64,000 bases of DNA from Planctomycetia bacterium (GTDB lineage: Bacteria > Planctomycetota > UBA8108 > UBA1146), in contig JAAXJX010000011.1 of NCBI GenBank assembly GCA_012269595.1, positions 68,184 through 132,183 on the forward strand, in the 5' to 3' direction. The notes beneath the pieces are model-generated. The model saw nothing but the letters and a program-made list of their open reading frames with translations, ran no database searches and was not told the origin of the DNA. The position numbers were made by a program, and so were the translations under genes. Below, in pieces: positions 14,119 to 41,406 of the stretch (positions within the stretch are counted from its first letter, which is position 1; every line of letters begins with the position of its first letter).

Positions 14119-15270
14119 TCAGGGAAGGAATTTACCCGGATTTTTCAGCTTTTGGGGCAAATATTCTTCAATGACGTAGTTCAGGCCCCACATCGCCAAA
14201 GCCTGTTGTTCGGCACGGACTCCCATCGACAACAATTGCTCAATCGCCGATTTCCACTGCTTCTTGCTCTTGAAGAAGGGGTCATTCTTGAGGGCGTCCT
14301 TGGCACGCTTGATATCGACATCCTTCAAGGGGTGGGTCGGAAGTTCGTAGTCGATGATGTCCTGGGGAGTCACTCCCAGATAGGTGGCATTGGGAACACA
14401 GAAGAAGCGATTGATGTGCGCGGCGTTACCCGATCCGACCTTCAAGGTTCGATAAATGTTGGAGATCCCGTAGGGATCGCAATCGACGAAGGCGTAAACC
14501 GGAATCTTGGCCTGTTCGCTGAGTCGGCGAATGAATCGGCGGGTCGAGCGGGTGGGGACTCCCGCCATATTGACGAGAATGCAATTGGAGGTTTTCCAGA
14601 ACTTGTGACTTTGCAGTCTTTGGAAAACACCTCCGGTTTCGATGGCGAGGATGAACTTGGCGCCGGTTTCAAAACTCAAATGCTCGACGGAAGTGGGAAT
14701 GGAATAGGCGCCACTGCCGAAGCGTGTGCAGTCAATGCGTTCGATCTCTCCGGATTCCAGATCGGGATCGAGGACCACCAGATCCCCAGCCACAGCTCCG
14801 CCATGCTCATCGGGCACAAAGCGCAACTGCTCACGACTGACATCGTCGACTGAGAAGAGCGCCTCGATGTCATCCATGACCGTGTCCGATTCGGTTTGGT
14901 CGTCAAACTTGGCTTCTTCCCAGTTTTTGGATTGGTAATAAACGTCTCGCTTGGTAGCAAAATCGTTGTTGATCACCAGTTCCCGGGAAAGGCCCATCAT
15001 GCGCAGTGTTTGTGCGAATCCCTTGACGGTGTTGACGGTCAGGGTGCGTTCCTTGCGGGCGCGGCCAATTTCGAGGTAACCCTTGCGCTTGTCGTAGGAG
15101 ACGTTGCTGAGACTGCGAACCGGGAAACGCATCAAGGGCTTGCCCTTGCGCTGAATCTTTTTGTAAATGTCATCTGCAGCACTCTCGATGCTGGAGATGG
15201 TCTTCTTGTCTTTTTTGGCGTTTTCCCGGCGGACCTTGTCCATGTATGCCCGGGTGATTTTCTTCGTCAT
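14119..15270 (-). CDS. top6A: DNA topoisomerase VI subunit A (Spo11/Top6A)
   Basis: Catalytic-tyrosine motif KRDVYYQSK in the CAP domain and the Toprim acidic motif AFVDCDPYGISNIYRT. 383 aa, with an AAGGGAG RBS. It starts 10 nt after the top6B stop. Confidence 0.9.
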   Translation of the reverse strand: MTKKITRAYMDKVRRENAKKDKKTISSIESAADDIYKKIQRKGKPLMRFPVRSLSNVSYDKRKGYLEIGRARKERTLTVNTVKGFAQTLRMMGLSRELVINNDFATKRDVYYQSKNWEEAKFDDQTESDTVMDDIEALFSVDDVSREQLRFVPDEHGGAVAGDLVVLDPDLESGEIERIDCTRFGSGAYSIPTSVEHLSFETGAKFILAIETGGVFQRLQSHKFWKTSNCILVNMAGVPTRSTRRFIRRLSEQAKIPVYAFVDCDPYGISNIYRTLKVGSGNAAHINRFFCVPNATYLGVTPQDIIDYELPTHPLKDVDIKRAKDALKNDPFFKSKKQWKSAIEQLLSMGVRAEQQALAMWGLNYVIEEYLPQKLKNPGKFLP

Positions 15271-15280
15271 TCAGTCTCCC

Positions 15281-17119
15281 TTACATCTTCCGGCTTTTTT
15301 CGAGAACATCGGCCAGTTTGGATTCTGCTCCGGTTCTCTGTTTATCGCTCAGCTCCAGAATGTCCTGGAGGGCGATGCCGATCTGGGGAATATACTTTTT
15401 GATGTAATCCTTCTTGCGCTCTGCATCCGCGAGTCGACGTTTCTTGCGCAGGTGGATCGCCAATTTTCGGCCCGCCTCCATGATGGCGAGGCGCATCTCC
15501 TTGAGGATCTCGTCGTATCCGGCGACCGCTTTCTTGCTTTCCGAGGTGAATGGAACCCACACACTCGCAATGTGAACCAGGATCGCCAGTGGACCGGTTG
15601 GCAGTGCTCCCCGTGCCTGTTGGACCTCGTAGTTTTTCCACGGGGTCGAAATGATCGATTGCGTGATGGCGCATGCACCCTGTTCGTATTGCAAGGGAAC
15701 CCGATTGGCGAAGCGGAAAATGCTGGCGAGCTCGTCTCCGGGAAGTTCTCCGCCATAAGCGATCCCCGCCTCTACCTGAAAGGGATTTCCGCGATAGACG
15801 GCAGGTTGACGGGTGACTGTCAGGACCAATTCGGGGTCAAAGTTGCGCCGGAGGGTTTTCGCCATCAAATCTTCTCCGATGGGGGAGAGGCAGTTGGTTG
15901 GCGGCGCCATCATCTTGGTCTGTTCGATGGACTTGTGAAGAATCTTGACATCGGCACTGCTCAGCCTGCGGGGGTGACGATCGGTATCGATGTACTTGCC
16001 CAGTTCTTCGCTTTGCTCACTGACCTTTTTCACCACATTCGGGGTCATTCGACAAAACTCGCTGCACAGGAATCCGCTGACAGTTCTGGAAGAGGTGTCC
16101 TTCATCATTTGCATGAGGATTCCCAGTTCCACTCCGTGTGGATGAGGCAGGATTTCCATGGGGGCTTCCGGAAGTTTCTTTGTCACCCGTTCCCAAATGA
16201 TGGGCGCTTTGTCCACAGGGTTTTTGTACTGGATTTCGACTTGGGGGTTGGCGAGGGAGACCTGTTCCAGGAAAGCATCGATAGAGTGCTTGCCTTTCTT
16301 GTAGGTCCCCTCCAACTCGATATGGATTTCGGTTCCATGGGCCCAATCGACGTCGACTTCCTGCTCTTTTTTGACCACCGGTTGGTTTTTTGCCATGTCG
16401 ATGGCAAGGGTGACCCGGGTGGCGGGTTTTCTTTTGGAGGTTCTGCTGGTGACCACCATCGGTTTACCGGTGGTCAGGTTTCCGTACATGCCTGCAGCAC
16501 TGATCCCGATTCCCTGTTGCCCCCGGGTCTGCTTGCGGGCATGGAACTTGGATCCATAAAGCAGTCGACCAAAAATCTTGGGCAACTGCGCAGGAACGAT
16601 GCCTGGCCCATTATCCCTTACGAGAATGGTGTGTTGTTCCTCGGAGGCCGCCGTGACTTCAACGACAATTGTCGGCAGGTATTCCGCTTCCTCGCAGGCA
16701 TCCAGAGAGTTGTCGACCGCTTCCCTGACGGTAGTCAGGAGAGCTCGCGCCGGGCTGTCAAAACCCAGCAGGTGGCGATTCTTGGCGAAGAACTCACTGA
16801 CGGAGATGTCTTTCTGCTTGGCCGCCAACTGTTCAGCCTTATTGGCAGATGCGAAGTCATCTCCGGAGGTCGCACGAGATTTTTTGGTCTTCTTTTTGGA
16901 TCGGGGAGCGGAGCTCTTGGCGGCTTTGCCCCTGGGGCTTTGACTGAAAAGATCCGCCTGTTCCGGTTTCGATCGGGATCCGGTCTTGCCACCGGAAGAT
17001 CGTTTTTTGGCCGCTTTTTTCGTGGCCTTCTTTTTGGCGACTTTTTTGGCTGCCTTTTTTGTCGTTTTTTTGGTGCTCTTCTTCGCGCTCTTTTTCTTTG
17101 CGCTTTTGGTCGGGGACAA
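15281..17119 (-). CDS. top6B: DNA topoisomerase VI subunit B (GHKL ATPase) with an N-terminal Lys/Ala-rich histone H1-like extension
   Basis: Bergerat-fold N box [16 protein letters not shown]1 box DNGPGI, and downstream transducer-domain regions. The first ~100 aa are [31 protein letters not shown]-type repeats. TTG start preceded by GGAGG. Confidence 0.9.
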
Positions 17120-17768: not shown

Positions 17769-17858
17769 CTGGAGACCAAGTTATGATAACCTGAGCCCGC
17801 CTGCTACCGATCAGAAGGATCGATGGCACAAGTTTGACGTACGAGAGGACCCTGAAAC

Positions 17859-18911
17859 ATGACCGGTTCACGTCTGCGGATATTGATCGCACTGCTTGCC
17901 TTGCTCCCGGCAAGCTTCCTGATCTCCAGTGATCTGGGAGCCCAATCGCCGGAAGAATTGGAGCGCCGCTGGAAAAAGAAGCAGGAGTCCTCCTTTCTCA
18001 AGGCGGTCAAATGGGAGCGCTCCCTCGACTCTGCGGTGGAAAGAGCGCGCAGGGACAATCTGCCCATCGTGGCCTACTTCACCCGATCCTATGCCCCATG
18101 ACCGCCTTGCACCGCTTTGGAGAGGGGTCCTCTCCAGTCCGATTGGTGGAAGGAAATGGCCGGCAAGGATTTTGTGCCCTACGTCAACATCAGTGCTCGA
18201 CTTCAGGACAAGCCTGATCAGGATCTGCTGAGAGAGATCGGAGCACGATCCTTTCCGACCACGGTGGTGATGGACGCAGACGGTCAGGTGATCTTGCGTA
18301 ATGACACGGCGGGAGCTTTCCGACCGAATGCAGAAAACAGGGTTCGTGGTGCGGTGGAGGTCGCCTCCGAGTTGGTCAAAGCGAGGTCCTGGGTCAAAAA
18401 CAGTGAAGAAGGTTCCGCAGATCAGGCCGCAGCCAAGGCGAGCCTGTTGCTGCTGGAATCGATTATGGATCTGCGCAAATCCACGGAAAAGGAACTGAAG
18501 CAGGCGGCCAAAACCGAAGGAGTCGACAAAAAGTTGTTGGCCCGTTTTGAGCGCTGGAATGCCTATCAGCCTGTGAACCGCCTTTTGCAGGAGTATGTCC
18601 GCAAGGTCAGGGCTCTCGATTCCGAGGACAAGGTCGGGCGCGGGAAGTTGTATCTGGATACTTCCCGGGAGATGCTCGAACTGTATCGGGCGGGGACCCG
18701 TCTCAATGATGCCAGAATCAACATCTTTTCCGATTACTGGCGGCTGGTTTTTGATGGGGCGATCACCGCAAAGGACCTCGCTGCGGCTGAAACAGCATTG
18801 ACGACCTACCGCAGGGCCTACGGATCCCGAGCTGATCTCAAACCCCGGATCAATCTCATGAGTTCCAAACTCGCAGCCCTGAAAGAAGAACTGGAAGTGA
18901 GTCAGCCATGA
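17859..18911 (+). CDS. Secreted thioredoxin-fold protein; candidate selenoprotein with in-frame TGA (Sec) at 18099-18101 giving a UPPC redox motif
   Basis: ORF-track entries 17859..18101 and 18117..18911 share one reading frame, separated only by TGA plus 5 sense codons. The read-through product ...LPIVAYFTRSYAP-U-PPCTALE... aligns with the Trx motif ...vvdFyAdWCgpCk... (UXXC in place of CXXC). Downstream a cis-Pro FPTTVVMDADGQV matches the Trx fold. A stem-loop lies about 17 nt after the TGA. Confidence 0.5.
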
Positions 18912-19843
18912 AGTCGAAGGATCAGCCTGTTGAATTGATCGGTGTGCCACTGGATCACGGTGCAGGGCAGAGAGGGGTCGCCATGGGCCCGACAGCCTTG
19001 AGAATCGCTGGGCTGACCAAGGCATTGGAGCGACTTGAGCTGAATGTGATAGACGGAGGGGATATTGCGGTTCCCATCCCTGAGCTGGAAAAGCCGGGAG
19101 ATCCGAAAGCCCGTTACCTTGAGACGATTTCCCAGACATGCGGTCAACTGAGTGATCGCGTGAAGGGGGCACTGGACAGTGGTCGGTTGCCGCTGGTGCT
19201 GGGAGGGGATCACTCCGTTGCTGTGGGAACCATCAGTGGTGTTGCCAGTCACTACAACAGTCAAAACCCCGGTTCGATTCCAAAAATCGGTGTGCTCTGG
19301 CTGGATGCCCACGCTGACCTGAATACTCCGGACACTTCACCTACAGGTAATGTCCACGGTATGCCCCTTGCCTGTCTTCTTGGGAATGGGCCCCGCGAGT
19401 TGACCGAAGTCGGTTATGCCGGAACCAAGTTGGAACCCCACCGCATCGTGCAGGTCGGGCTCCGCGATCTGGATCCTGGGGAACGTCGGAATATCCGCGA
19501 AAACAACATTCGTGCCTACACGATGGAAGACGTTGACCGCAGGGGCTTGCCCGTGGTGTTGGAGGAAGCGATCTCTCATGCTCTTGAGGACTGCGATCAC
19601 CTTCATGTGAGTTTCGACATCGATGTCATCGATCCCAGATTTGCACCGGGTACCGGAACCGCGTTGGAGGGGGGCTTCACCTACCGGGAGGCTCATCTGG
19701 CGATGGAAATGATCGCCGAGACTGGCAAGGTTGGGTCCCTTGAACTGGTAGAGGTCAATCCCGTGCTCGATCATGGCAACAAAACCGCAGAAGTGGGCGT
19801 TGCCATCCTCGCGAGTGCGCTGGGAGAGGAAATCCTCGGATAA
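18908..19843 (+). CDS. Arginase-family ureohydrolase (likely arginase)
   Basis: Mn-binding motifs GGDHSVAVG, DAHADLNTP and SFDIDVIDP. ATGA overlap with the upstream gene. Confidence 0.88.
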   Translation: MKSKDQPVELIGVPLDHGAGQRGVAMGPTALRIAGLTKALERLELNVIDGGDIAVPIPELEKPGDPKARYLETISQTCGQLSDRVKGALDSGRLPLVLGGDHSVAVGTISGVASHYNSQNPGSIPKIGVLWLDAHADLNTPDTSPTGNVHGMPLACLLGNGPRELTEVGYAGTKLEPHRIVQVGLRDLDPGERRNIRENNIRAYTMEDVDRRGLPVVLEEAISHALEDCDHLHVSFDIDVIDPRFAPGTGTALEGGFTYREAHLAMEMIAETGKVGSLELVEVNPVLDHGNKTAEVGVAILASALGEEILG

Positions 19844-19945
19844 ACTCCCTATGGGGCTCTCTGAGGCCCTCTGTTCTCATTGTGGGATTTTTCGCCAACC
19901 TTTATGATGTGCGGCGAACAGAAGTCCCGTCAGACAGGGGGAAAG

Positions 19946-21175
19946 ATGGCGTCAGTTCCTGCAGGCAATGACATCCCGGACAGTTGGCCTCCACCACCAC
20001 CGGATAAACCAGGCAAAAGATCCGGGGGAGGCGGTGGCAAACGAAATTCAGGAGGCGGCGACTTCCAATTGCACCCTATGGCGGTTCCAGGATTTTTGCT
20101 GGCTCTGATTTTGGGGGTCTTCCTCTTTCTGGTGCTCACCGGCAGAGCGGGAATCGTCGATATTTCCGATACGGAAGTCGCGGTGATCGTCAACTACCTG
20201 ACCGGTGAAGAAGAAGTGGTCACCACTCCGGGAGTGACCTTCTTCCTGCCATGGCTCAGCGAGGCGTATGTCATGGACAAATCGCCGAATGAGTTTCAGA
20301 TGACGGGAACCAGAAACATTGATTACAACCATGTCCGTGAATTGTCCGTCAGGGCCTCGGATGGTTCCTCTTTCAAATTCAATGTGATTTCACTTCAGTA
20401 CCAGTTGATCCCCTCCGAAGCAGCGAGGGTATTACAGGACAGTGGGCCCGGTGAAGCCTTCAAGCGTAACTGGGTCAGGGCCTTCGCAAGGTCGGTCCTT
20501 CGTGACGAGTTCGGTCGCTACTCTTCCGAGGATATTGCCGACCCGAGCAACTACACCACCGCGACGAATCAATCCAAGAATCGCCTGAATGAATATCTCA
20601 GGGATCACGGCATCGAGATTCTGCAGATCATCACTCCGAAACCCAGTTTTGATATCAAGGTCGAGAATGCCATCGAGGATCGCAAAAACGCCAACCAGGA
20701 GGTGGAGCGACTGCGCATCGAGCAGGCCAAACTGATCAATGAGCTGGAGCGCAAGCTCGCGGAAACAGAGCGAACCAAGGCCTCCGAATATGAACAGGCT
20801 TTGGGAAAACTCGAAGCAGACAAGATCAATGCGGAAAAGGATCGGGTCCAGATCGAGAAATCGGCAGACGCCTACAAGATCACCCAGATCAACGCAGGCA
20901 AGGCAGAAGAGGCTCGCAAGACTCAGGAAGCACGGGCTCTGGAAAACAGTGCCCGCAAGGAAGCAGAAGGTTTGCTGGCCCGTGTCGCCGCACTGGAGCG
21001 TCAGGGTGAAGTCCTCGTCCGTGAGGAACTCTCCAGGCTCTTCCAGCGTGTGAAATTCAGTGTGGTGCCGTATCGCAGGGATTCCGCACCGGTTCGAGTG
21101 GAGCATTTGCTTCCTCCGGCGGGACAATCCGCAGGGGCTCAGGGGATTCCCGAGTTGAAGGGAGACCGTCGATGA
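19946..21175 (+). CDS. SPFH/band-7 domain protein (HflK-like) with a C-terminal coiled coil
   Basis: TM helix followed by an SPFH core (IVDISDTEVAVIVNYLTGE...TPGVTFFLPW) and a long coiled coil. Start set at the ATG with the GGGGGAAAG RBS; the ORF track starts at 19880. Confidence 0.8.
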   Translation: MASVPAGNDIPDSWPPPPPDKPGKRSGGGGGKRNSGGGDFQLHPMAVPGFLLALILGVFLFLVLTGRAGIVDISDTEVAVIVNYLTGEEEVVTTPGVTFFLPWLSEAYVMDKSPNEFQMTGTRNIDYNHVRELSVRASDGSSFKFNVISLQYQLIPSEAARVLQDSGPGEAFKRNWVRAFARSVLRDEFGRYSSEDIADPSNYTTATNQSKNRLNEYLRDHGIEILQIITPKPSFDIKVENAIEDRKNANQEVERLRIEQAKLINELERKLAETERTKASEYEQALGKLEADKINAEKDRVQIEKSADAYKITQINAGKAEEARKTQEARALENSARKEAEGLLARVAALERQGEVLVREELSRLFQRVKFSVVPYRRDSAPVRVEHLLPPAGQSAGAQGIPELKGDRR

Positions 21176-22275
21176 AGTTTCTCTCCGTAATTCTGTCGAT
21201 TTTGATTGTTGGTTTGTTTCTGCTGACCGCCGTCACCCAGAAAATTCCACCTGCTTCCATCGGTGTCAAACAAGTGGTTTTCGGACCTGGCAAGGGAGTG
21301 GTGCAGGAAGATTTTCGCACCGGGCTGGTTCTTGCCATTCCCAGTTATCATCGTTGGCACCTGTTGCCCCGCCAGACTCATTTCCTGCATTTCGTCAGTG
21401 GTGAGAAGCTGCGAGACAACCGGAATACTTCCCGGGGGATCGAGGATTGGCAGCAGCCCCTCGAGCTTCGTACCAAAGACAACAACAATGTGACCATCGA
21501 TGTTTCATTGACCTATCGAATCGTCGAAGGGTCCGGTTACAAGTTGGTGGAAGAGGGATTGCGTCTTTCTTACGTGGAGCGTGTCCGCTCGCAGGTTCTC
21601 AATGTTTTGCGGACTGAACTTGCGAAGTTGACTTCTGAAGACCTTCAGTTGACGGACAAGCGATCGGTGCAAGCGGCGGAAACCCTCACCGTTCTTCGAT
21701 CGGAACTGGCGAGTTTTCATGTCGAGCCGGAAGACCTGTTGATCCGTGCGGTAAAATTCCTTCCCGACTACGAAAGCAAACTTCAGAACAAACAGCTTTT
21801 GCGTCAGGAATCAAAACTGGAAGAGGCTTTGACCAAACAGGCTGAGGAAGATCAGAAGGTTCAGACCCAGAAGCGCCAGATTGCGGCAGCAGTCCTTGCC
21901 AAGGAGCGGGACTGGGAGAAAAGGATTCAGGAGCAGCGATCGGCATTCGAGGTGGAAATCGCCACGATCTCGTCAGAAGCCCAGCTCTACGACCGCAAAA
22001 CCCGATCTGAGGGCGATGCAGAGAGGGATATCCTGATCGCGGAAGGGGATCTGGCCATCGAAAAGTCGAAGGCCCTGCGCGACGACTTGCGAAATCAGGC
22101 TCTCGATACCACCGGGGGCCGAATCCTGCTCGCACTGGAAGCGGTCAAGAATCTGGAGATCCCGGAAGTCATTCTCAACAGTGATGATCCCTCGGTTCCG
22201 ATGCTTCTCGATATGAGTCGCATGACGAGGCTGTTGGTCGGGGAATCTCCGCCACCGCCGTCATTGACAGATTAG
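21172..22275 (+). CDS. SPFH/band-7 domain protein (HflC-like)
   Basis: N-terminal TM helix, SPFH domain and coiled coil. ATGA overlap with the upstream SPFH gene, the typical HflK/HflC-like pairing. Confidence 0.8.
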   Translation: MKFLSVILSILIVGLFLLTAVTQKIPPASIGVKQVVFGPGKGVVQEDFRTGLVLAIPSYHRWHLLPRQTHFLHFVSGEKLRDNRNTSRGIEDWQQPLELRTKDNNNVTIDVSLTYRIVEGSGYKLVEEGLRLSYVERVRSQVLNVLRTELAKLTSEDLQLTDKRSVQAAETLTVLRSELASFHVEPEDLLIRAVKFLPDYESKLQNKQLLRQESKLEEALTKQAEEDQKVQTQKRQIAAAVLAKERDWEKRIQEQRSAFEVEIATISSEAQLYDRKTRSEGDAERDILIAEGDLAIEKSKALRDDLRNQALDTTGGRILLALEAVKNLEIPEVILNSDDPSVPMLLDMSRMTRLLVGESPPPPSLTD

Positions 22276-22367: not shown

Positions 22368-22408
22368 GGGAGTTGCCAGAGTCAGGACTCTGGCAACTCC
22401 CCTTTTTG
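22368..22408. terminator. Bidirectional rho-independent terminator between convergent genes
   Basis: Perfect 16-bp inverted repeat GGGAGTTGCCAGAGTC-agg-GACTCTGGCAACTCCC, flanked by a T-tract on the + strand (CTTTTTGATT) and an A-tract upstream (the T-tract for the - strand). Confidence 0.6.
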
Positions 22409-22681
22409 ATTGACGTCAGAAAGTCTGACCAGTGCGCTCACCGTTTCTCGGGGAATGCGAATGGTCGAAACTCTGGGCCAGTGTCCCATCTGTCGGGCTC
22501 TGGAGAGCCAATCGACAGGATTCTCGTCACTTTCACTGACCACGTGCTGGTCGGCATCGTGAAGGATGACCTCGATGGCATCCTCACTGTGACAGCGGCC
22601 GATCCAGGTGTTTCCATCTTTTTGGCGGACCACCACGGTGATGCCGTGGAGTTCACCCATGTGGTCATGAAACGTACCCAA
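22382..22681 (-). CDS. Hypothetical small protein (99 aa)
   Basis: Begins 4 nt after the BrxA-like gene stop, with a TTG start and no clear RBS. Its 3' end runs into the terminator stem. No recognisable domain. Confidence 0.3.
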   Translation of the reverse strand: MGTFHDHMGELHGITVVVRQKDGNTWIGRCHSEDAIEVILHDADQHVVSESDENPVDWLSRARQMGHWPRVSTIRIPRETVSALVRLSDVNQKGELPES

Positions 22682-22684
22682 GGT

Positions 22685-23113
22685 TCAGTTGGCCTTGCTG
22701 GAGCAGTGCTCTTCGTACGCCTGGACCAGATCGAAAGCAATGCTCTGAGGGTCACGGCCTTCAATCATATGGCGTGGCAGGAACCAGACCAGCTCCGAGC
22801 CCTTGAAGAGGGCCATCGATGGGCTGCTGGGGGGGACCTGTGAACAGAAGTCACGGGCTTTTTGAGTCGCTTCCACATCCTGACCGGCGAAGACGGTACC
22901 GATGCGATCCGGTTTCGTTTCGGCCTGAATCGAGAGAACAGCACCGGGGCGTGCACCACCAGCGGCACAGCCACAGACGCTGTTGATGATGACCAGTGAA
23001 GTTTCTTCAGATCCGAGGAAATCCTCTACCTCAGTAGCAGATTTCAGTTCGGTGACTCCATGGTCGGTCAGTTCCTTGCGCATGGGCGCAACCAATTCTT
23101 CAGGGTAAGGCAT
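22685..23113 (-). CDS. BrxA/YphP-family (DUF1094) thiol-disulfide oxidoreductase (bacilliredoxin-like)
   Basis: Contains the CGC-type motif INSVCGCAAGGARP characteristic of the YphP/YqiW (BrxA/B) family; 142 aa. Confidence 0.75.
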   Translation of the reverse strand: MPYPEELVAPMRKELTDHGVTELKSATEVEDFLGSEETSLVIINSVCGCAAGGARPGAVLSIQAETKPDRIGTVFAGQDVEATQKARDFCSQVPPSSPSMALFKGSELVWFLPRHMIEGRDPQSIAFDLVQAYEEHCSSKAN

Positions 23114-23221
23114 GGGCCTTCCTTCCTCAGGGGTTCAGGATCCCCGCAGGGATCTCCCCGATGCTAGCCACAGAAGGTGCTCAGGACAACCAGACCCGAC
23201 CGGGTCTCAGGATCAGGAGCA

Positions 23222-25160: not shown

Positions 25161-26372
25161 TCAGCCCCTGCGAATCACGTCGAGCGGTTTGGCCCCGCGG
25201 GAAACCTCAGATCTGCCTTTCAGACCGAACCATTTCTGTTCAATGGTGGCATAGAGGCGGCGGTAGTCGGTGGTGTGGATCAGGTCATCCCTGACCAATT
25301 TCCCGAGATCAGGCTGTCTGCCGGAGAAGCCTCCCTTGATATTGCCACCGAGCAACAAGTGTGGGGCGGCGGTGCCGTGGTCGGTTCCCTCACTGCCATT
25401 CTCTCTGGCACGGCGTCCAAACTCCGAGTAGGTGCTGATCAGGGTGCGATCCCATTTACCGGTGGCGATCAGTGCCTTGCGCAGGGCTGCCAAACCATCC
25501 GCCAACTCTGTCAACAGACGGGAGTGGCGATTGAGTTGGTTGTTATGCGTGTCAAAGCCGCCGATGGAGATCTTGATGACTGGGCAGGGAACTCCGGAGG
25601 TGACCATCTCTGCGGCAATCTTGCAGCGTTGGCCAAACCGGGTGCCGGGGAACCGGACTCCGTGATCCGGTGAAGCCTGAATCTTTTCTTCGATGATCCC
25701 TGCCGCTTTTTTGATGTCATCCTGAACATCGAGAAGGTGCTCCAGTGCCTTGCGAGCATCCGTACCGCGAGCGACTTCCGGAACTGCACGGGCCTGGCGT
25801 GAAAATTTTTCGGGGTCATCCATGTTGATCACTCGCAAGCCGGTTCCGTACAGAGGGCCAGCGTCACCTCCACCGATGATGATTCCTTCGGCGGCACGCT
25901 CCGGATCGGGCTGAGCCTTGAGCATTCTCGTCAGCCAGCCTTCCTGCAATTCCTCGTCGCTGTCGGAACCGGTTTCCCAGATTTCGATGGACCGGAAGTG
26001 AGACCGATTGGGATCCGGGTAGCCGAGGCCGAGTATCCAGTTGGCTTCCTCAGCCTCCCATGCCTCTGTCAGCGGTTTCAGGGAAGAATGCATTCCCTGT
26101 TTAGAATCCAACTCGATGATCTGGTTCTTTTTCAAGCCGATACGGGGTCTCAGTTCCTGATAACGCTCATCACGGAGGGGGATCACGGTATTCAAACCGT
26201 CATTTCCTCCCTGAAGCTCCACGAGTATCAGAGTCCGTTCGCGTAATCCGGGTGCGACCTTCAACTGCTTCTGTTGCGGGTCGTCAAATGCCCAGGCTTC
26301 CACTCCGGGAACCAGCCATGGAAGGCATGCTCCTCCGCTGAGATGAAGAAAGGTTCTGCGATCAAATTCCAT
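25161..26372 (-). CDS. DUF1501 domain protein (sulfatase-like, Tat signal)
   Basis: Twin-arginine signal MEFDRRTFLHLSGGA and a conserved DUF1501 core (...ISIGGFDTHNNQ...). Downstream partner of DUF1800. Confidence 0.9.
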   Translation of the reverse strand: MEFDRRTFLHLSGGACLPWLVPGVEAWAFDDPQQKQLKVAPGLRERTLILVELQGGNDGLNTVIPLRDERYQELRPRIGLKKNQIIELDSKQGMHSSLKPLTEAWEAEEANWILGLGYPDPNRSHFRSIEIWETGSDSDEELQEGWLTRMLKAQPDPERAAEGIIIGGGDAGPLYGTGLRVINMDDPEKFSRQARAVPEVARGTDARKALEHLLDVQDDIKKAAGIIEEKIQASPDHGVRFPGTRFGQRCKIAAEMVTSGVPCPVIKISIGGFDTHNNQLNRHSRLLTELADGLAALRKALIATGKWDRTLISTYSEFGRRARENGSEGTDHGTAAPHLLLGGNIKGGFSGRQPDLGKLVRDDLIHTTDYRRLYATIEQKWFGLKGRSEVSRGAKPLDVIRRG

Positions 26373-26378
26373 GGGATC

Positions 26379-27998
26379 TCATTTCAGCTGATAGGTCGGG
26401 TCGAGAATCAGTTCCTGCAGGCGTCCAAAACCGGTATCGCTCTGATCGGCATCCGTCACCGGTTGAAAAGGCAACCACGAAAGGGTCCATGCTTCTTCGT
26501 TCATCGATTTACCGTCGATGAATTGCTGGTACAGCTTTTCAACAGACTGTGCTGCAACTGGGCGATAACGGCGAATCTGTCGCCGGTTCAATCGCCTGGT
26601 CGCCCTGTTTCCTGCTGGATTCATTTCCGGTTTCATGTCCGGTGACATCTCCGGATCCATTTCCGGGTTCATTTCTGGATCCATCTCGGGTGTTTTTTCG
26701 GGATTCATCCCGGACTTGCCGACATTGGCAGAGCCTTCCCGCTTTTGCCACGTGGAAAAAATCATGGCTGTGGGGACGGCATCCTGAAGAAACTTTCGTC
26801 TCTCCAGCAAAGACGTCGTATCGATCCATGCAGTTCCACCGGGCCACCCAGCCACATTTGGCGGGTCGAAGAGAACCTGTCCCATCGCTTGAAGATTGCG
26901 GTTGAGCTGCAGCCCTGGAATCTCGCTGATTTCCAATCTTCGCAGAGAGCCCATCACCAGATCGACCGGGCTTTTGACCAGCGCTCCCCGATATTCTGAT
27001 GACCAGAATTGATCTGATTTGAAGACGTGTGACAGGAATGCTTTCAAATCCCAATCGGATCGGCGCAGCACCTTGCCCCACTTTTTGATCACATCCTGAT
27101 CGGGGGTGGGTGAGACGAATTCGAGCCAGAACCTGCGTGCAATCCACTCACCACAAGCGGGATGCTTGAGGACCAGATTGACGACGTCCAGCCCATCGAG
27201 GCGGCCTCTTTTACCCAGGACGGTTTTGACGGAAGAATCATGGAGACGGGAGACTTTGCGAACCTGACCCTGACCCTGGACTCGATATCCGGTAAAGGCA
27301 CGGGCGGCTTCCTTGACGTCCCGTTCTGTGTAATGACCTTCTCCAAGACTGAAGAGTTCGAAGAGTTCCCGGGCAAAGTTCTCATTGGGTTTGCCCTTTT
27401 TGCTCTGTTGGGTGTTGAGATAGATGGCCATGGCGTTGTCCATGGAAACAGCTCTCAAGAGATCAGCGAAGTTGTCGCTTCCATTTTTACGGAAGAGCTG
27501 ATTTTGAGCGAGCATTGCGTGCGGTGATCTGACGGTCCGCATTTCTGAAGTGAAATGCCCATGCCACATCAATACCAGGCGTTCAGTCAGGGGCGATGAA
27601 GTGGTCAGGATTTCCTGTGCCCACCAGGATCGGGCTTCCTGTTGCCAACCTCTTTGCGTTCTACCGAATGCTTGCCTGTCCTCCAGCCGAAGATCCCGAA
27701 TCTCCTGAAACGATAATCCGGTCCATTCGGGAAGGGGGGTTTGTGCTTCGGTTTCCAAGGTGCTGACCAGTTGATCGACGGCTTGATCTCTGGTCAGGGA
27801 AGCGTAGTTCTCCAGCGTTTGATGGGGGGCTCCGAAGCAGGTTCGATCGAGGAGGTGTCTCGCGTCGGCGATCCCCATCCCTTTTGGGGAATCGGTTCGA
27901 TCAACTTTTGCCTGTTGAGCGGTCGAAGGAGAATCGATGACCGGCTGAACAGCGATAAGGCTGCCAACGATGATCAGAAGGCCGGGAAGTGGACTCAT
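26379..27998 (-). CDS. DUF1800 domain protein
   Basis: Signal peptide and DUF1800 core (RHLLDRTCFGA...). Start moved to the ATG with a GGAGAG RBS; the ORF track extends to 28055. Contains an internal PEM(N/D) tandem repeat. Confidence 0.85.
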   Translation of the reverse strand: MSPLPGLLIIVGSLIAVQPVIDSPSTAQQAKVDRTDSPKGMGIADARHLLDRTCFGAPHQTLENYASLTRDQAVDQLVSTLETEAQTPLPEWTGLSFQEIRDLRLEDRQAFGRTQRGWQQEARSWWAQEILTTSSPLTERLVLMWHGHFTSEMRTVRSPHAMLAQNQLFRKNGSDNFADLLRAVSMDNAMAIYLNTQQSKKGKPNENFARELFELFSLGEGHYTERDVKEAARAFTGYRVQGQGQVRKVSRLHDSSVKTVLGKRGRLDGLDVVNLVLKHPACGEWIARRFWLEFVSPTPDQDVIKKWGKVLRRSDWDLKAFLSHVFKSDQFWSSEYRGALVKSPVDLVMGSLRRLEISEIPGLQLNRNLQAMGQVLFDPPNVAGWPGGTAWIDTTSLLERRKFLQDAVPTAMIFSTWQKREGSANVGKSGMNPEKTPEMDPEMNPEMDPEMSPDMKPEMNPAGNRATRRLNRRQIRRYRPVAAQSVEKLYQQFIDGKSMNEEAWTLSWLPFQPVTDADQSDTGFGRLQELILDPTYQLK

Positions 27999-28112
27999 GG
28001 TGTCTCTCCAATTGATCGTATCGGGCCTCAAAAGAACCGAAGCCGTCAGGGTCACAAAAGAATAACACCGAATCTGCTAAATGGTTGCACCTAATGATTA
28101 CCGCAGGGTGAC

Positions 28113-36660: not shown

Positions 36661-37461
36661 ATGAGTTCTGAATCTGATCCATGGCCAGCCAACCCGGAAG
36701 CGGCACTCCCCCGATTGGTGGAGGAGCAAGGGGGGCGACTCTACTCTCTCGGATTGAAATTCTGCGGAAATGCGGCTGAGGCAGAGGATCTGGTTCAAGA
36801 GACTTTTATTCTGGCATATCAGAACTGGGAATCCTTTGAAGGGCGTTCAAAGGTCTCAACCTGGCTGTACTCCATTGCGGCCCGGGTTTGTCAAAAAATG
36901 CATCGCAAGCGTGCCGGAGAGCCGGATCAAATCGGATCTCTCGAGGAATTACTTCCATTTGGCGAGCCCCGGATCGCGCAAACCGCTTCCGAAATGGATC
37001 CCGCTGATATCCAAATGATCCATATCGAGTCGAGGGAGGATTTGGAGCGGGCCATCGCTAAAATGCCCCAGGACTTTCGTATGCCACTGGTACTCAAGGA
37101 CATCATCGGTTTGACCGTTCCCGAAATTGCTTCAGTGATGGGAATGGAAGAGGGGACGGTGAAATCCCGGGTCCACAGGGCACGGCTCAAACTGAGGAAA
37201 CTGGTCGACGACCGTCTTCCCAGAACCCCCGATGACGTGCCACCTGCTGCCTATCCGATTCAGGTTTGCCTCGATTTGCTTGAGGCGAAGCAGCGATCTC
37301 TGGATCTGAATGAGGAGTTCAGTTCTGAGGTGATCTGCCAGCGGTGTCAGTCCGTCTTTGCTTCCATGGACCTGGCTCAGGATATCTGTCAATCCCTGGC
37401 GGAGGATCATATCCCAGAGGGGTTGAATGAGCGTTTGCGGAAGGCTCTGTCAGAGCTGTAA
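36661..37461 (+). CDS. ECF (sigma-70 family) RNA polymerase sigma factor with a Cys-containing C-terminal extension
   Basis: Sigma-2 region (DLVQETFILAYQNWESFEG) and sigma-4 region (EIASVMGMEEGTVKSRVHRARLKLRK), plus about 90 extra C-terminal residues containing the spaced cysteines VC..ICQRC....ICQ. Confidence 0.85.
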   Translation: MSSESDPWPANPEAALPRLVEEQGGRLYSLGLKFCGNAAEAEDLVQETFILAYQNWESFEGRSKVSTWLYSIAARVCQKMHRKRAGEPDQIGSLEELLPFGEPRIAQTASEMDPADIQMIHIESREDLERAIAKMPQDFRMPLVLKDIIGLTVPEIASVMGMEEGTVKSRVHRARLKLRKLVDDRLPRTPDDVPPAAYPIQVCLDLLEAKQRSLDLNEEFSSEVICQRCQSVFASMDLAQDICQSLAEDHIPEGLNERLRKALSEL

Positions 37462-37560
37462 GTCCCAACTCTCAAACCAGTTAAAAAAAACTCAAAAAAG
37501 TCGGGAACGATGACGGCGTTTTCTGCCTCTCAGATGATGAACCTGAGTGGAGGTGCGCCC

Positions 37561-38985
37561 ATGTTTGTCAGGCAGATCACAGACGATCAGTTGGCTCAAT
37601 ACAGCTATCTCATTGGCTGTCAGCGCACCGGTGAAGCCATCGTTTTCGATCCCATGCGGGATATCGACCGCTACGTCGACCTGGCGAAGCAGCAGGGGCT
37701 CAAGATTGTGGCCGCTGCGGAAACCCACATTCATGCGGACTTTTTGTCGGGACTCCGGGAATTGGGTGAACTTCCCGGTGTAGAGCTGTTTCTTTCGGGT
37801 GAAGGTGACAAGGAATGGAGTCCCCGCTGGCTCGATCAGCATTCAGGGGGTGGTTCCTATGATCATCGGCTTCTGAAGGATGGAGAGGTCTTCTCCATAG
37901 GAAATATCGACTTCAAGGTTCTTCATACCCCCGGACATACTCCTGAGCACTTGTCCTTTCTGGTCACCGATCGTGGGGCAGGGGCTGATCAGCCAATGAC
38001 ACTGATTTCCGGAGACTTTCTATTTGTGGGTGATCTGGGGCGCCCGGATCTGTTGGAGACCGCTGCTGGCCATGCAGGGTCGATGGAGCCCGCAGCCCGA
38101 GAGCTTTTCCAGAGTGCTCACTTGATCAACCTTCTTCCCGAGTTTGTTCAGGTCTGGCCCGGTCATGGATCTGGCAGTGCGTGTGGAAAAGCATTGGGCG
38201 CAGTGCCCACAAGTACCATTGGTTATGAAAAGAGATTCAATTCTGCCCTCTCCCATTCAGCGAGCGAAGAGGAGTTCGTGCAGAAAATCCTTTCGGGACA
38301 ACCGGAACCCCCTCTGTATTTTTCAGAAATGAAACGCCTCAACAGGGATGGGGTTCCGGTACTTGAAAAGATCAGAACTCCAAAAAGAATGAATGAGGAT
38401 CAGTTTGTTGCCGCTTATGAAAGCGGTGCCATCGTGGTGGATGCCCGCGATTGGGTACTGTTCAAGGAGCAGTTTTTGCCGGGATCCCTGTCGATCCCCA
38501 TGAACAGCAAGCTTCACTCGATGTTGGGCAGTTTTGTTGAACTCCAAGATCGCCTGCTTCTCGTGTGTGAAGAAGAAGACCTCAAGGTGCTGGTCCGTCG
38601 CCTGATCAGAATCGGATACGACAAGATTCTGGGGTGGGTCCATCCTGACGAAATCATCGGTTTAAGCAGTTATCTGGGAGCATGGGGAACGATTGAAGAG
38701 TCGGATCCGGTAGAGATTTCCACAAAGATCGAGTTATCGGGACGCAGGATTCTGGATGTTCGAAAATCCTCCGAATTTGAAAATGATCATATTCCTGGCG
38801 CAATCAACATCCCTCACACACTCTTGAGGTCTCGTCTCAAAGAGTTGGATCGTGGGGTGACCTGGTACGTCGTCTGTGAAACAGGTGATCGCTCTGCTCG
38901 CTCAGCCAGCTTTTTGAATGCCATGGGCTGGCCAGTCGTCAATCTCTCCGGTGGCATGCATGCATTGCGTGCGAAGAGGGTTTAA
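37561..38985 (+). CDS. Persulfide dioxygenase (MBL fold, ETHE1-like) fused to two rhodanese domains
   Basis: MBL metal motifs ETHIHADF and HTPGHTPEH, and a C-terminal rhodanese module (...VVCETGDRSARSA...). Start at the ATG with GGAGG 8 nt upstream; the ORF track starts at 37510. Confidence 0.85.
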   Translation: MFVRQITDDQLAQYSYLIGCQRTGEAIVFDPMRDIDRYVDLAKQQGLKIVAAAETHIHADFLSGLRELGELPGVELFLSGEGDKEWSPRWLDQHSGGGSYDHRLLKDGEVFSIGNIDFKVLHTPGHTPEHLSFLVTDRGAGADQPMTLISGDFLFVGDLGRPDLLETAAGHAGSMEPAARELFQSAHLINLLPEFVQVWPGHGSGSACGKALGAVPTSTIGYEKRFNSALSHSASEEEFVQKILSGQPEPPLYFSEMKRLNRDGVPVLEKIRTPKRMNEDQFVAAYESGAIVVDARDWVLFKEQFLPGSLSIPMNSKLHSMLGSFVELQDRLLLVCEEEDLKVLVRRLIRIGYDKILGWVHPDEIIGLSSYLGAWGTIEESDPVEISTKIELSGRRILDVRKSSEFENDHIPGAINIPHTLLRSRLKELDRGVTWYVVCETGDRSARSASFLNAMGWPVVNLSGGMHALRAKRV

Positions 38986-39581
38986 TGGCTATGGAAAAAG
39001 AAACTGTCCAAAAGAATCTTCAGAGAGGGCTTTCGAACGAAGAGTCCCGGGCACTGATTGAACGTGGACAGGCCCTGCTGATCGATGTGCGAGAACATGC
39101 CGAGTTTAAGGCAGAGGCGATTTCAGGAGCACTGTCGCACCCACTTTCAACATTTGACTCTGAAACCCTTCAGGTCTTCATGGGGAAGCGGGTACCGATT
39201 TTTTACTGTCGTACCGGCATTCGTTCTGAAGAAGCGTTACAGCGCTGGTTAAAAGAGGAGAGAGACGGATTCCATCTCGTTGAAGGAATCCGCAATTGGA
39301 CCTCTGCAGGTTTTGAAGTGAGAACTCGTCAGGCAGGGTCAAGGATCGATGTCATGAGACAGACCCAGATGGTGGCTGGATCCCTGATTTTAAGCCTGTC
39401 CTGTTTGGCCATTTTTGTGAATTCGCTCTTTTGGATCGGTTCAGTCGCAATTGGATTGGGCTTGTTCCATGCCGGAGCCAGTGGAACTTGTGGGTTGGCC
39501 ACGGTGATCTCCTGGCTCCCCTGGAATCGGCGAGTCCCTGTATCAGTTGTGGGTGATGCAGGAGTGGGATCGATTTCATAG
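38985..39581 (+). CDS. YgaP-like protein: rhodanese domain plus C-terminal DUF2892 membrane domain
   Basis: Rhodanese active-site loop FYCRTGIRS followed by two TM helices with a GxxxG-rich DUF2892-like segment. ATGG overlap with the upstream gene. Confidence 0.75.
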   Translation: MAMEKETVQKNLQRGLSNEESRALIERGQALLIDVREHAEFKAEAISGALSHPLSTFDSETLQVFMGKRVPIFYCRTGIRSEEALQRWLKEERDGFHLVEGIRNWTSAGFEVRTRQAGSRIDVMRQTQMVAGSLILSLSCLAIFVNSLFWIGSVAIGLGLFHAGASGTCGLATVISWLPWNRRVPVSVVGDAGVGSIS

Positions 39582-40188: not shown

Positions 40189-40265
40189 ATGGTGGGCGAT
40201 ACTGGACTCGAACCAGTGACCTCATCGATGTGAACGATGCGCTCTAGCCAGCTGAGCTAAACGCC
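40189..40265 (-). tRNA. tRNA-Val (anticodon CAC)
   Basis: The reverse complement GGGCGTTTAGCTCAGCTGGCTAGAGCGCATCGTTCACATCGATG...GGTTCGAGTCCAG...CGCCCACCA folds with anticodon loop TTCACAT. Confidence 0.85.
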
Positions 40266-40279
40266 CCCAAGTTTTAAAG

Positions 40280-40370
40280 TTGGTGCCGAAGAGAGGATTC
40301 GAACCTCCACCCGGTGTGAACCGGACCAGGACCTGAACCTGGCGCGTCTGCCAGTTCCGCCACTTCGGCA
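40280..40370 (-). tRNA. tRNA-Leu (anticodon CAG), class II with a long variable arm
   Basis: The reverse complement GTGCCGAAGTGGCGGAACTGGCAGACGCGCCAGGTTCAGGTCCTGG...GGTTCGAATCC...GGCACCA has anticodon loop TTCAGGT; 91 nt. Confidence 0.85.
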
Positions 40371-40502
40371 CAAGCAAGCATGAATATCCTTTCCCCCGGG
40401 GAAAGTCAAGACTCCCCGACGATGTTGGCCCAGTTCATGGTAAAACTCTTCCTTGACCCCGCTATTCGGGGGTGGATCGGGAGCGAGGAAGGAATCGATG
40501 CG

Positions 40503-40952
40503 ATGAAGGTGGTGGCCCAGAATCGACGGGCACGCTTCGAACTGGAGATCCTTGACACTCTGGAGGCGGGAATCGTCCTGCAGGGCTCCGAGGTCAAGAG
40601 TCTTCGTGCAGGCCAATGTGAAATGGTCGATGGTTTTGTCCGTGTTGAGGCGGGTGAGGCCTTCATGCACAAGGTGCGCATCGCAGAATACAGTCATGGT
40701 GGTTACTCCAATCATGAGCCGACCCGCAAGCGCAAACTGCTGGTTCACAAACGTGAGGCCAACCAGCTACGGGTCAAGATGGAGGAAAAGGGTCTGACCA
40801 TCGTCCCCCTGAAGATCTATTTCAACGAGAAGGGCAAGGTCAAGGTCGAGATCGGTATCGGTCGCGGCAAGAAGGCCCATGACAAGCGCAAGGCCACAAA
40901 AGACAGGGAAACGAAGCGGGAGATCGACCGCGAAATGCGTCGACGTCGCTGA
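40503..40952 (+). CDS. smpB: SsrA-binding protein SmpB
   Basis: Canonical SmpB sequence (MKVVAQNRRARFELEILDTLEAGIVLQGSEVKSLR ... KLLVHKRE...) with a basic C-terminal tail. Start set at the internal ATG to give 150 aa; the ORF track starts at 40380. Confidence 0.9.
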   Translation: MKVVAQNRRARFELEILDTLEAGIVLQGSEVKSLRAGQCEMVDGFVRVEAGEAFMHKVRIAEYSHGGYSNHEPTRKRKLLVHKREANQLRVKMEEKGLTIVPLKIYFNEKGKVKVEIGIGRGKKAHDKRKATKDRETKREIDREMRRRR

Positions 40953-41053
40953 CGAGTCGGGCTTTGCCTTGTCAGGATTCCTTGCCGAATCCGTAAATCA
41001 GGATAGATTAAGAGATCACACGTTTACTGTTTCTCAGTAAACGCGGTTCTGTC

Positions 41054-41406
41054 GGGGGCGAAACGGTTTCGACCGGACGATGGAACGTCGTGTGGCAGGT
41101 GGAGGTTGTCCGGAGGCCTCCTTAAACACCGGCAAAATTTTTGACTGCGAACAACAACTTCGCACTGGCTGCCTAATACTGGCGCCCCTTCCCCCGCGGC
41201 ATGTCCAGGGCCGCGGACGGAGGGCCATTTTTCTGGACTGGCCGAAGAAGACCCTGCCAGTGGTCTTTGAGGCGAGATCGAACTGGCGACCGTGGATCGG
41301 ATCCTGTCCGTTGGAGCTGACCTCGGTTTTAAAGAACGGACTATGCCTGTAGAAGCTCGGCGGGAAACGTTTCGGGACCCGGGTTCGACTCCCGGCGCCT
41401 CCACCA
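41054..41406 (+). ncRNA. ssrA: tmRNA (ssrA)
   Basis: The 5' end GGGGGCGAAACGGTTTCGAC pairs with the 3' end. The 3' T-arm-like GGGTTCGACTCCCGGCGCCTCCACCA ends in CCA. An internal tag-peptide frame ...GCG AAC AAC AAC TTC GCA CTG GCT GCC TAA gives (A)NNNFALAA. It lies immediately downstream of smpB. Confidence 0.85.

Follow-up and report, generated by a model that had tools for sequence, protein, structure and literature searches.

A candidate DsbH-like selenoprotein gene with a UPPC redox motif and a coding-region SECIS-like hairpin in Planctomycetota

The classic example of a bacterial SECIS element is that of Escherichia coli fdhF. According to the current model, a bacterial SECIS has a loop of 3–9 nt with G in the first two loop positions, 16–37 nt between the UGA codon and the loop, and a folding energy of at most -7.5 kcal/mol (PMC13188914). 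Thioredoxin-fold proteins with a UxxC motif are the commonest type of bacterial selenoproteins (PMC1794560, PMC13188914), in agreement with the preliminary description of the locus considered here, which called the Sec/Cys position of this fold the most common bacterial selenoprotein site. Known UxxC proteins include thioredoxins (PF00085), thiol:disulfide interchange proteins (PF13098), DsbA-like proteins, and VPGUxxT proteins (NF041383) (PMC13188914). The table of the 2026 review contains no UxxC family based on PF13899, and Planctomycetes are unmentioned in the main text of that review (PMC13188914) and the BSepDB paper. At the same time, complete selA/B/C/D sets have been documented in two Porphyra-associated Planctomycetes, Gemmata obscuriglobus, and Isosphaera pallida (PMC4807772), and hence Sec decoding is plausible at the level of the phylum. 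In one of the Porphyra strains, candidates described as "thiol-disulfide isomerase-like thioredoxin" have been reported, with the nearest Cys homologue in Singulisphaera (PMC4807772); these may be an earlier sighting of the DsbH-like Sec family described below.

The analysed stretch of 64,000 nucleotides, hereinafter the window, contains a single reading frame of 350 codons, from ATG at 17859–17861 to TGA at 18909–18911, with TGA at 18099–18101 (codon 81) as its sole interruption. Reading through this codon yields ...PIVAYFTRSYAP, then the residue encoded by the TGA, then PPCTALERGPLQS...FPTTVVMDADGQV... The features of the locus are as follows (window coordinates).

17843–17849, plus strand: Shine–Dalgarno-like GAGAGGA, 9 nt 5' of the ATG, read off the sequence
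17859–18911, plus strand: candidate full-length selenoprotein gene, including Sec81 and the terminal TGA (single frame; pN/pS on both sides of codon 81)
17859–17942, plus strand: predicted N-terminal signal peptide MTGSRLRILIALLALLPASFLISSDLGAQ with a putative cleavage site (hydrophobic stretch)
18012–18278, plus strand: thioredoxin-fold domain of the Thioredoxin_7/DsbH–DsbD-gamma type, extending across the TGA
18099–18101, plus strand: putative Sec codon TGA, codon 81, the first position of the UPPC redox motif (18099–18110)
18117–18137, plus strand: bSECIS-like hairpin UUGGAGAGG-GGU-CCUCUCCAG (folding, and a consensus stem with compensatory changes)
18255–18257, plus strand: codon of proline P133 (FPTTVV), invariant in alignments A1 and A2
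18351–18908, plus strand: C-terminal all-alpha domain of ~185 residues (model of a Cys homologue)
18908–19843, plus strand: arginase gene (TIGR01229), whose ATG (18908–18910) overlaps the terminal TGA as ATGA
19880–22275: two Band_7 genes, 3' of the arginase gene

Re-reading of the sequence confirmed the layout given in the preliminary description, that is, one frame broken only by the TGA at 18099–18101 and an ATGA overlap of its 3' end with the arginase gene, whose identity follows from the NCBIfam model TIGR01229 (306 bits). The upstream signal peptide proposed there is consistent with a strongly hydrophobic N-terminal stretch of 12 residues (Kyte–Doolittle 2.58); such a stretch is present in 70 of 77 homologues. 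A similar GAGAGGA precedes the start codon in an orthologue (L009), and a consensus scan yielded no sigma-70-like promoter.

The codon at position 81 is not a random stop, as the preliminary description had maintained: the homologous codon is TGA in every TGA-bearing relative examined. A protein search retrieved eleven close relatives of about 251 amino acids, each beginning shortly after the TGA (the closest ones at an internal Met), and one full-length homologue of 311 amino acids with CPPC at the active site. Upstream translation of the contigs encoding the close relatives revealed an in-frame stop at the same codon (YFTRSYAP-stop-PPC or YFTRSYSP-stop-PPC), TGA every time, with synonymous differences in the flanking codons. 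The window itself is 98–99% identical to the MAG contigs CAJXMG010000015.1, JACETR010000007.1 (MCMED-G47), and JAPOLY010000004.1, and all syntenic orthologues first examined, with identities of 40–85%, retain the TGA. A breadth scan with one genome per GTDB species provided 70 loci, nearly all of them from Planctomycetota MAGs. In the window and all fetched loci taken together, codon 81 is TGA in 69 cases, TGC or TGT in nine, AGC in one, and never TAA or TAG, so that 69 out of 69 stops at this position (about 60 unique sequences, almost all of Planctomycetota MAG origin) are TGA. Since 63 unique genes of the TGA form end in any of the three stops (36 in TGA, 21 in TAG, six in TAA), this exclusive use of TGA is not an effect of codon usage.

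More distant homologues have Cys exactly at this position, as expected for a Cys/Sec pair: CPPC, CGPC, CVPC, and CPFC proteins all place Cys at the UGA position, and the full-length CxxC forms in the protein collection (P0012–P0027) are single continuous proteins. Cys homologues of 300–350 amino acids align with the window protein end to end. Within the subfamily carrying the PIxAYFTRS motif, TGA forms outnumber Cys forms approximately 60 to eight. The TGA forms come from independent ENA, JGI, NCBI, and Logan assemblies and amount to about 60 distinct sequences, the most divergent with a protein identity of roughly 25%. With E ≤ 1e-30 as the threshold, a profile search against 1.84 billion cluster representatives yielded 506 clusters (50% identity). 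Among the 157 representatives that scored highest and had not been retrieved before, at least 36 begin just after the active site, and a start just past the active site is the signature of truncation at the TGA.

A hairpin lies directly 3' of the TGA, at 18117–18137, with a stem of 9 bp, the loop GGU (18126–18128), and an energy of -12.4 kcal/mol; the stem begins 15 nt after the TGA, and 24 nt separate the UGA from the loop. Hence, it agrees with the bacterial SECIS model in loop size, loop sequence, spacing, and energy. A stem of 7 bp or more without interruption was found in 55 of 60 unique TGA forms (9–10 bp in 43 of them) and in none of the eight Cys/Ser forms, whose stems are all of 3–5 bp despite the retained amino acid pattern L-E-x-G-x-L; in synonymous recodings used as a control the stem averages 4.4 bp. 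In a strict test for a bSECIS without bulges, 54 out of 60 TGA forms pass and six fail, vs. zero out of eight Cys/Ser forms passing. Both marine and freshwater Planctomycetota share the TGA together with the hairpin. Thus, the search for a SECIS suggested in the preliminary description produced a hairpin of the bacterial type 3' of the TGA that is absent from the Cys forms.

There are 35 distinct stems, in which the seven inner pairs are always formed, each by two to four types of pairs. Depending on the clade, the hairpin is placed differently with respect to the codons, in three registers in all (column sums 58, 59, and 60); the stem measures 7–10 bp throughout, and the loop is the Gly codon GGN, GGUC (4 nt), or, with a one-base shift, G-U-N. 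This shift of the register argues that the structure itself, rather than the encoded peptide, is conserved. Since the register differs between clades, RNAalifold applied to all 57 sequences together retains only five pairs, and given these differences two subgroups were analysed separately. Both have 9-bp consensus stems of about -14.7 kcal/mol, with double compensatory changes in four pairs each and few broken cells, mostly at the two outermost pairs. The consensus stem for the window element occupies alignment columns 19–27/31–39 (columns 19–40 of alignment A4 correspond to window positions 18117–18138). The Rfam SECIS families yielded no match at either gathering or permissive thresholds; these models may not cover the hairpin at 18117–18137.

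A separate observation concerns a Cys form retaining the LEGGPL peptide (P0027, L081:3001–3960), whose gene has a PepSY_TM gene on one side and a radical SAM gene on the other. It has only a weaker, shifted hairpin of 7 bp with a CCA loop and an energy of -7.0 kcal/mol, and may have passed from Sec to Cys recently, with the SECIS in decay.

The encoded protein belongs to the Thioredoxin_7/DsbH–DsbD-gamma group, as follows from a significant match of the family profile to solved members and from the arrangement of the active site. Pfam Thioredoxin_7 covers residues 52–140, across the TGA, with E = 1.4e-5 and 25.6 bits, slightly under the gathering threshold of 27, and PF13098 scores 21.4 bits, also below its gathering threshold of 27. 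A profile of 31 family sequences matches DsbH (PDB:2ju5) with E = 8.5e-12, followed by DsbD-gamma and other Thioredoxin_7 members. In the profile alignment the TGA codon falls on the first Cys of the DsbH CMWC motif, which bears out the reading ...YAP-U-PPC with the TGA as the first Cys of CXXC. An AlphaFold model of the Cys homologue P0012, built with 27 sequences (pLDDT 92.4, pTM 0.83), contains a signal-like N-terminal helix, a thioredoxin fold in which Cys78 precedes helix 79–86 at its N-terminus, and, starting at residue 149, eight helices that make up the remainder of the chain, the part from residue 175 onwards being helical with pLDDT above 90. DsbH and DsbD-gamma are the top matches in the structural search with this model. 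The redox dyad thus lies at the N-terminus of helix α1 and is accompanied by the conserved P133 in the FPTTVVMD segment. The cis-Pro strand noticed downstream in the preliminary description stands as far as the invariance of P133 is concerned; that this residue is the cis-Pro of the thioredoxin fold is suggested by the motif. Q29 is nearly invariant in alignment A2, and the signal-peptide region has low pLDDT in the homologue model. For the C-terminal helical domain, the sequence search of the PDB gave nothing beyond weak similarity to designed helical repeats, and the fold search provided no match. Taking the modelled fold and the N-terminus together, the protein is most likely a thiol-disulfide oxidoreductase that is exported to the periplasm and whose attacking residue is Sec.

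In every assembly examined, gene callers split this gene into an 80-amino acid ORF and a 251-amino acid ORF starting from the internal ATG at 18156. These automatic calls, together with the GGAAGGA preceding the internal ATG, speak for two separate genes, an 80-residue exported peptide terminating at 18099–18101 and a 251-residue protein; still, we consider this arrangement highly improbable. Such a split would cut the thioredoxin fold between strand β1 and helix α1, several orthologues have no ATG at the start position of the 251-amino acid ORF, and the Cys homologues are continuous. Besides, in-frame conservation extends to the 18 codons that separate the TGA from the internal ATG: in four orthologues aligning without gaps, pN/pS is 0.16–0.40 over these codons, 0.09–0.15 over the 50 codons upstream of the TGA, and 0.02–0.09 further downstream. 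These values (0.02–0.40 overall) point to purifying selection on both flanks; synonymous divergence is reduced in the hairpin-bearing stretch, where the counts are small. The same selection speaks against a former Cys codon turned into a stop by a nonsense mutation or by a sequencing artefact. In favour of such a pseudogene or assembly error, a change from TGC to TGA takes only one base, but the same TGA recurs in independent assemblies from the four sources and in about 60 distinct sequences, the stop is never TAA or TAG, and the probability of this explanation is close to negligible. Hence, the possibility raised in the preliminary description that orthologues would reveal a genuine gene boundary or a pseudogene came out against both.

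It is thus very probable, as judged from comparative sequence data, that 17859–18911 is a genuine selenoprotein gene with UGA-81 read as selenocysteine, and the proposal of the preliminary description gains support from the conservation of the TGA, the Cys/Sec pairing, the hairpin, the fold extending across the TGA, and purifying selection. The comparative results demonstrate recoding of the UGA rather than the identity of the inserted residue, and selA/B/C/D and the gene of tRNA-Sec were not found within the window; both circumstances would also be compatible with near-cognate, hairpin-stimulated reading of the UGA as Trp, Cys, or Arg, or with a lineage-specific recoding independent of SelB. 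We regard such non-Sec read-through as quite improbable. At the position of the CxxC nucleophile, the sole alternatives to this codon are Cys and, in a single case, Ser, which is the signature of Sec; the hairpin conforms to the SelB-type bSECIS model in its spacing and G-first loop; selA/B/C/D are present in other Planctomycetes; and the codon has not been reassigned, since TGA also terminates this very gene, as well as 36 of the 63 family genes.

The search for the Sec machinery covered the window and related loci. None of selA, selB, selC, and selD occurs in the 64 kb of the window, which is hardly informative for a genome that measures several megabases. ARAGORN identified no tRNA-Sec in the window and 60 loci, Pfam and NCBIfam yielded no components of the machinery among about 45 ORFs of the window, and tblastn with E. 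coli probes against 1.26 Mb of related loci found no SelA, SelB, or SelD, the single match being to a generic GTPase. A scan for further selenoprotein genes, based on a TGA beside Cys and a bSECIS-like hairpin, gave only off-frame noise.

Under the selenocysteine reading, 17859–18911 would encode one exported thiol-disulfide oxidoreductase of 350 residues. Decoding of UGA codon 81 as Sec would create a U-P-P-C site at the N-terminus of helix α1 of a DsbH/DsbD-gamma-type fold. It would be directed by the coding-region stem-loop at 18117–18137, whose loop coincides with the Gly codon in the conserved L-E-x-G-x-L pattern and which would, if other bacteria are a guide, recruit SelB loaded with Sec-tRNA(Sec). 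Sec would presumably be inserted by SelA/B/C/D, the product is probably exported to the periplasm, and its function there may be of the reductase or isomerase type, with Sec as the attacking nucleophile.

The genomic neighbourhood is well conserved among close relatives. Their contigs carry TopoVI-A/B and NUDIX genes on the opposite strand, followed by the 80-amino acid ORF, the 251-amino acid ORF, arginase, and two Band_7 genes. The synteny holds throughout the orthologue group L001–L029, most loci of which include arginase itself. As a functional clue for the whole family the arginase link was rejected, being confined to the marine orthologue clade, and in the loci compared the wider family shares no conserved neighbour. 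The distant Cys homologue P0012 (L005:6869–10936) is encoded just 5' of an arginine repressor and argC/B/D/F-like genes; the coincidence of these arginine neighbours with the marine arginase coupling may be accidental, most family members having no link to arginine genes. In the window, the genes of Topoisomerase VI A (14119–15270) and B (15281–17119), identified by Pfam TP6A_N and Topo-VIb_trans, are on the minus strand, and wherever an orthologous locus extends far enough upstream, they adjoin the selenoprotein operon there too. Topoisomerase VI is mainly an archaeal and plant enzyme. In the JGI contig KVRMV2_100000189, TopoVI-B (L001:7111–8956) and the second Band_7 gene (L001:12987–14092) are each in two pieces, probably due to frameshift errors of that assembly, the near-identical NCBI contig (L002) being intact.

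Several MAGs contain a second paralogue with 33% identity, U-G/P-P-C at the active site and MEGGPLLS, which also has the TGA. Many MAGs with the arginase-linked copy also have this paralogue (L030–L044, e.g., L033:9977–10996), whose neighbours are genes for a Peptidase_S49 protein and a GTPase (GTP-bdg_N/M, MMR_HSR1). One locus (L068:9926–11785) has two tandem TGA copies.

Two other same-frame pairs of ORFs interrupted by TGA on the minus strand of the window were considered and rejected as Sec candidates, namely, Disulph_isomer (PF06491) with a 99-amino acid ORF at approximately 22687 (22380–23140) and the DUF1800/DUF1501 pair at 26381 (25161–28055). In both cases the frames differ in L003, and since the shared frame is not conserved there, these are ordinary gene boundaries. 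Elsewhere in the window, an ECF-type sigma factor gene is followed by genes for a metallo-beta-lactamase–rhodanese fusion (37510–38985) and a rhodanese/YgaP-like membrane protein (38985–39581), so that the region 36661–39581 looks like a sulfur-handling cassette, and a cluster at 40190–41406 comprises tRNA-Val and tRNA-Leu (40190–40369, minus strand), SmpB (40380–40952, plus strand), and, beside them, tmRNA (41054–41406, 160 bits).

The selenoprotein family is new, in that no NCBIfam selenoprotein model reaches its cutoff, but it is of the well-known and unsurprising UxxC type, and our understanding of how selenoproteins work is unchanged by it. A family-specific model would correct many annotations, given that the gene is split in two across the assemblies examined; Planctomycetota would join the lineages with lineage-specific selenoproteins; and studies of SelB recognition would have in this family a bSECIS that is compact, well sampled, and accompanied by natural Sec and Cys controls. 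A much broader claim, to which we assign a low probability, is that this is a Planctomycetota-wide, Sec-dominated, exported DsbH-like family with a new helical partner domain, missed by the curated selenoprotein models, whose marine copy ties the arginase operon to selenium. Were it true, largely aerobic marine Planctomycetota would have an overlooked selenoproteome, and the marine-clade gene would be translationally coupled, via ATGA, to arginase and two Band_7 genes. When selenium is scarce, UGA-81 would remain undecoded and ribosomes would stop about 800 nt short of the arginase start, linking expression of the arginase operon to the selenium supply.

Among the described proteins, the closest is DsbH, the periplasmic disulfide reductase of Chlamydia (PDB:2ju5). 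The CMWC motif of DsbH corresponds to UPPC of the window protein, with Sec in place of the first Cys; the differences are the additional C-terminal helical domain of ~185 residues and an identity of only about 22–26%, and the NCBIfam DsbH model NF043050 scores 24.4 bits vs. the cutoff of 190. The gamma domain of DsbD (PDB:1uc7, 2fwe, 1vrs) belongs to the same thioredoxin subfamily and has CxxC at the same position; the window protein, however, is not fused to the DsbD membrane domain, and no conserved DsbD/CcdA-type neighbour was seen in the compared loci. From the known UxxC selenoproteins the family differs in its architecture and lineage (Planctomycetota), and the scores of NF041383 (VPGUxxT type 2; 31.2 bits) and NF045694 (TsoB; 19.4 bits) are far from the respective cutoffs of 275 and 805. 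Compared with the bSECIS consensus underlying bSECISearch, the loop in this family is very small (3–4 nt) and the stem is perfect, without a bulge; SelB binding is putative; a stem-loop within the coding region and agreement with the loop, spacing, and energy criteria are common to both. Finally, the known UxxC selenoproteins and the window gene have in common the N-terminal position of Sec in the redox dyad, the bSECIS situated directly 3' in the coding region, and the existence of Cys-containing homologues.
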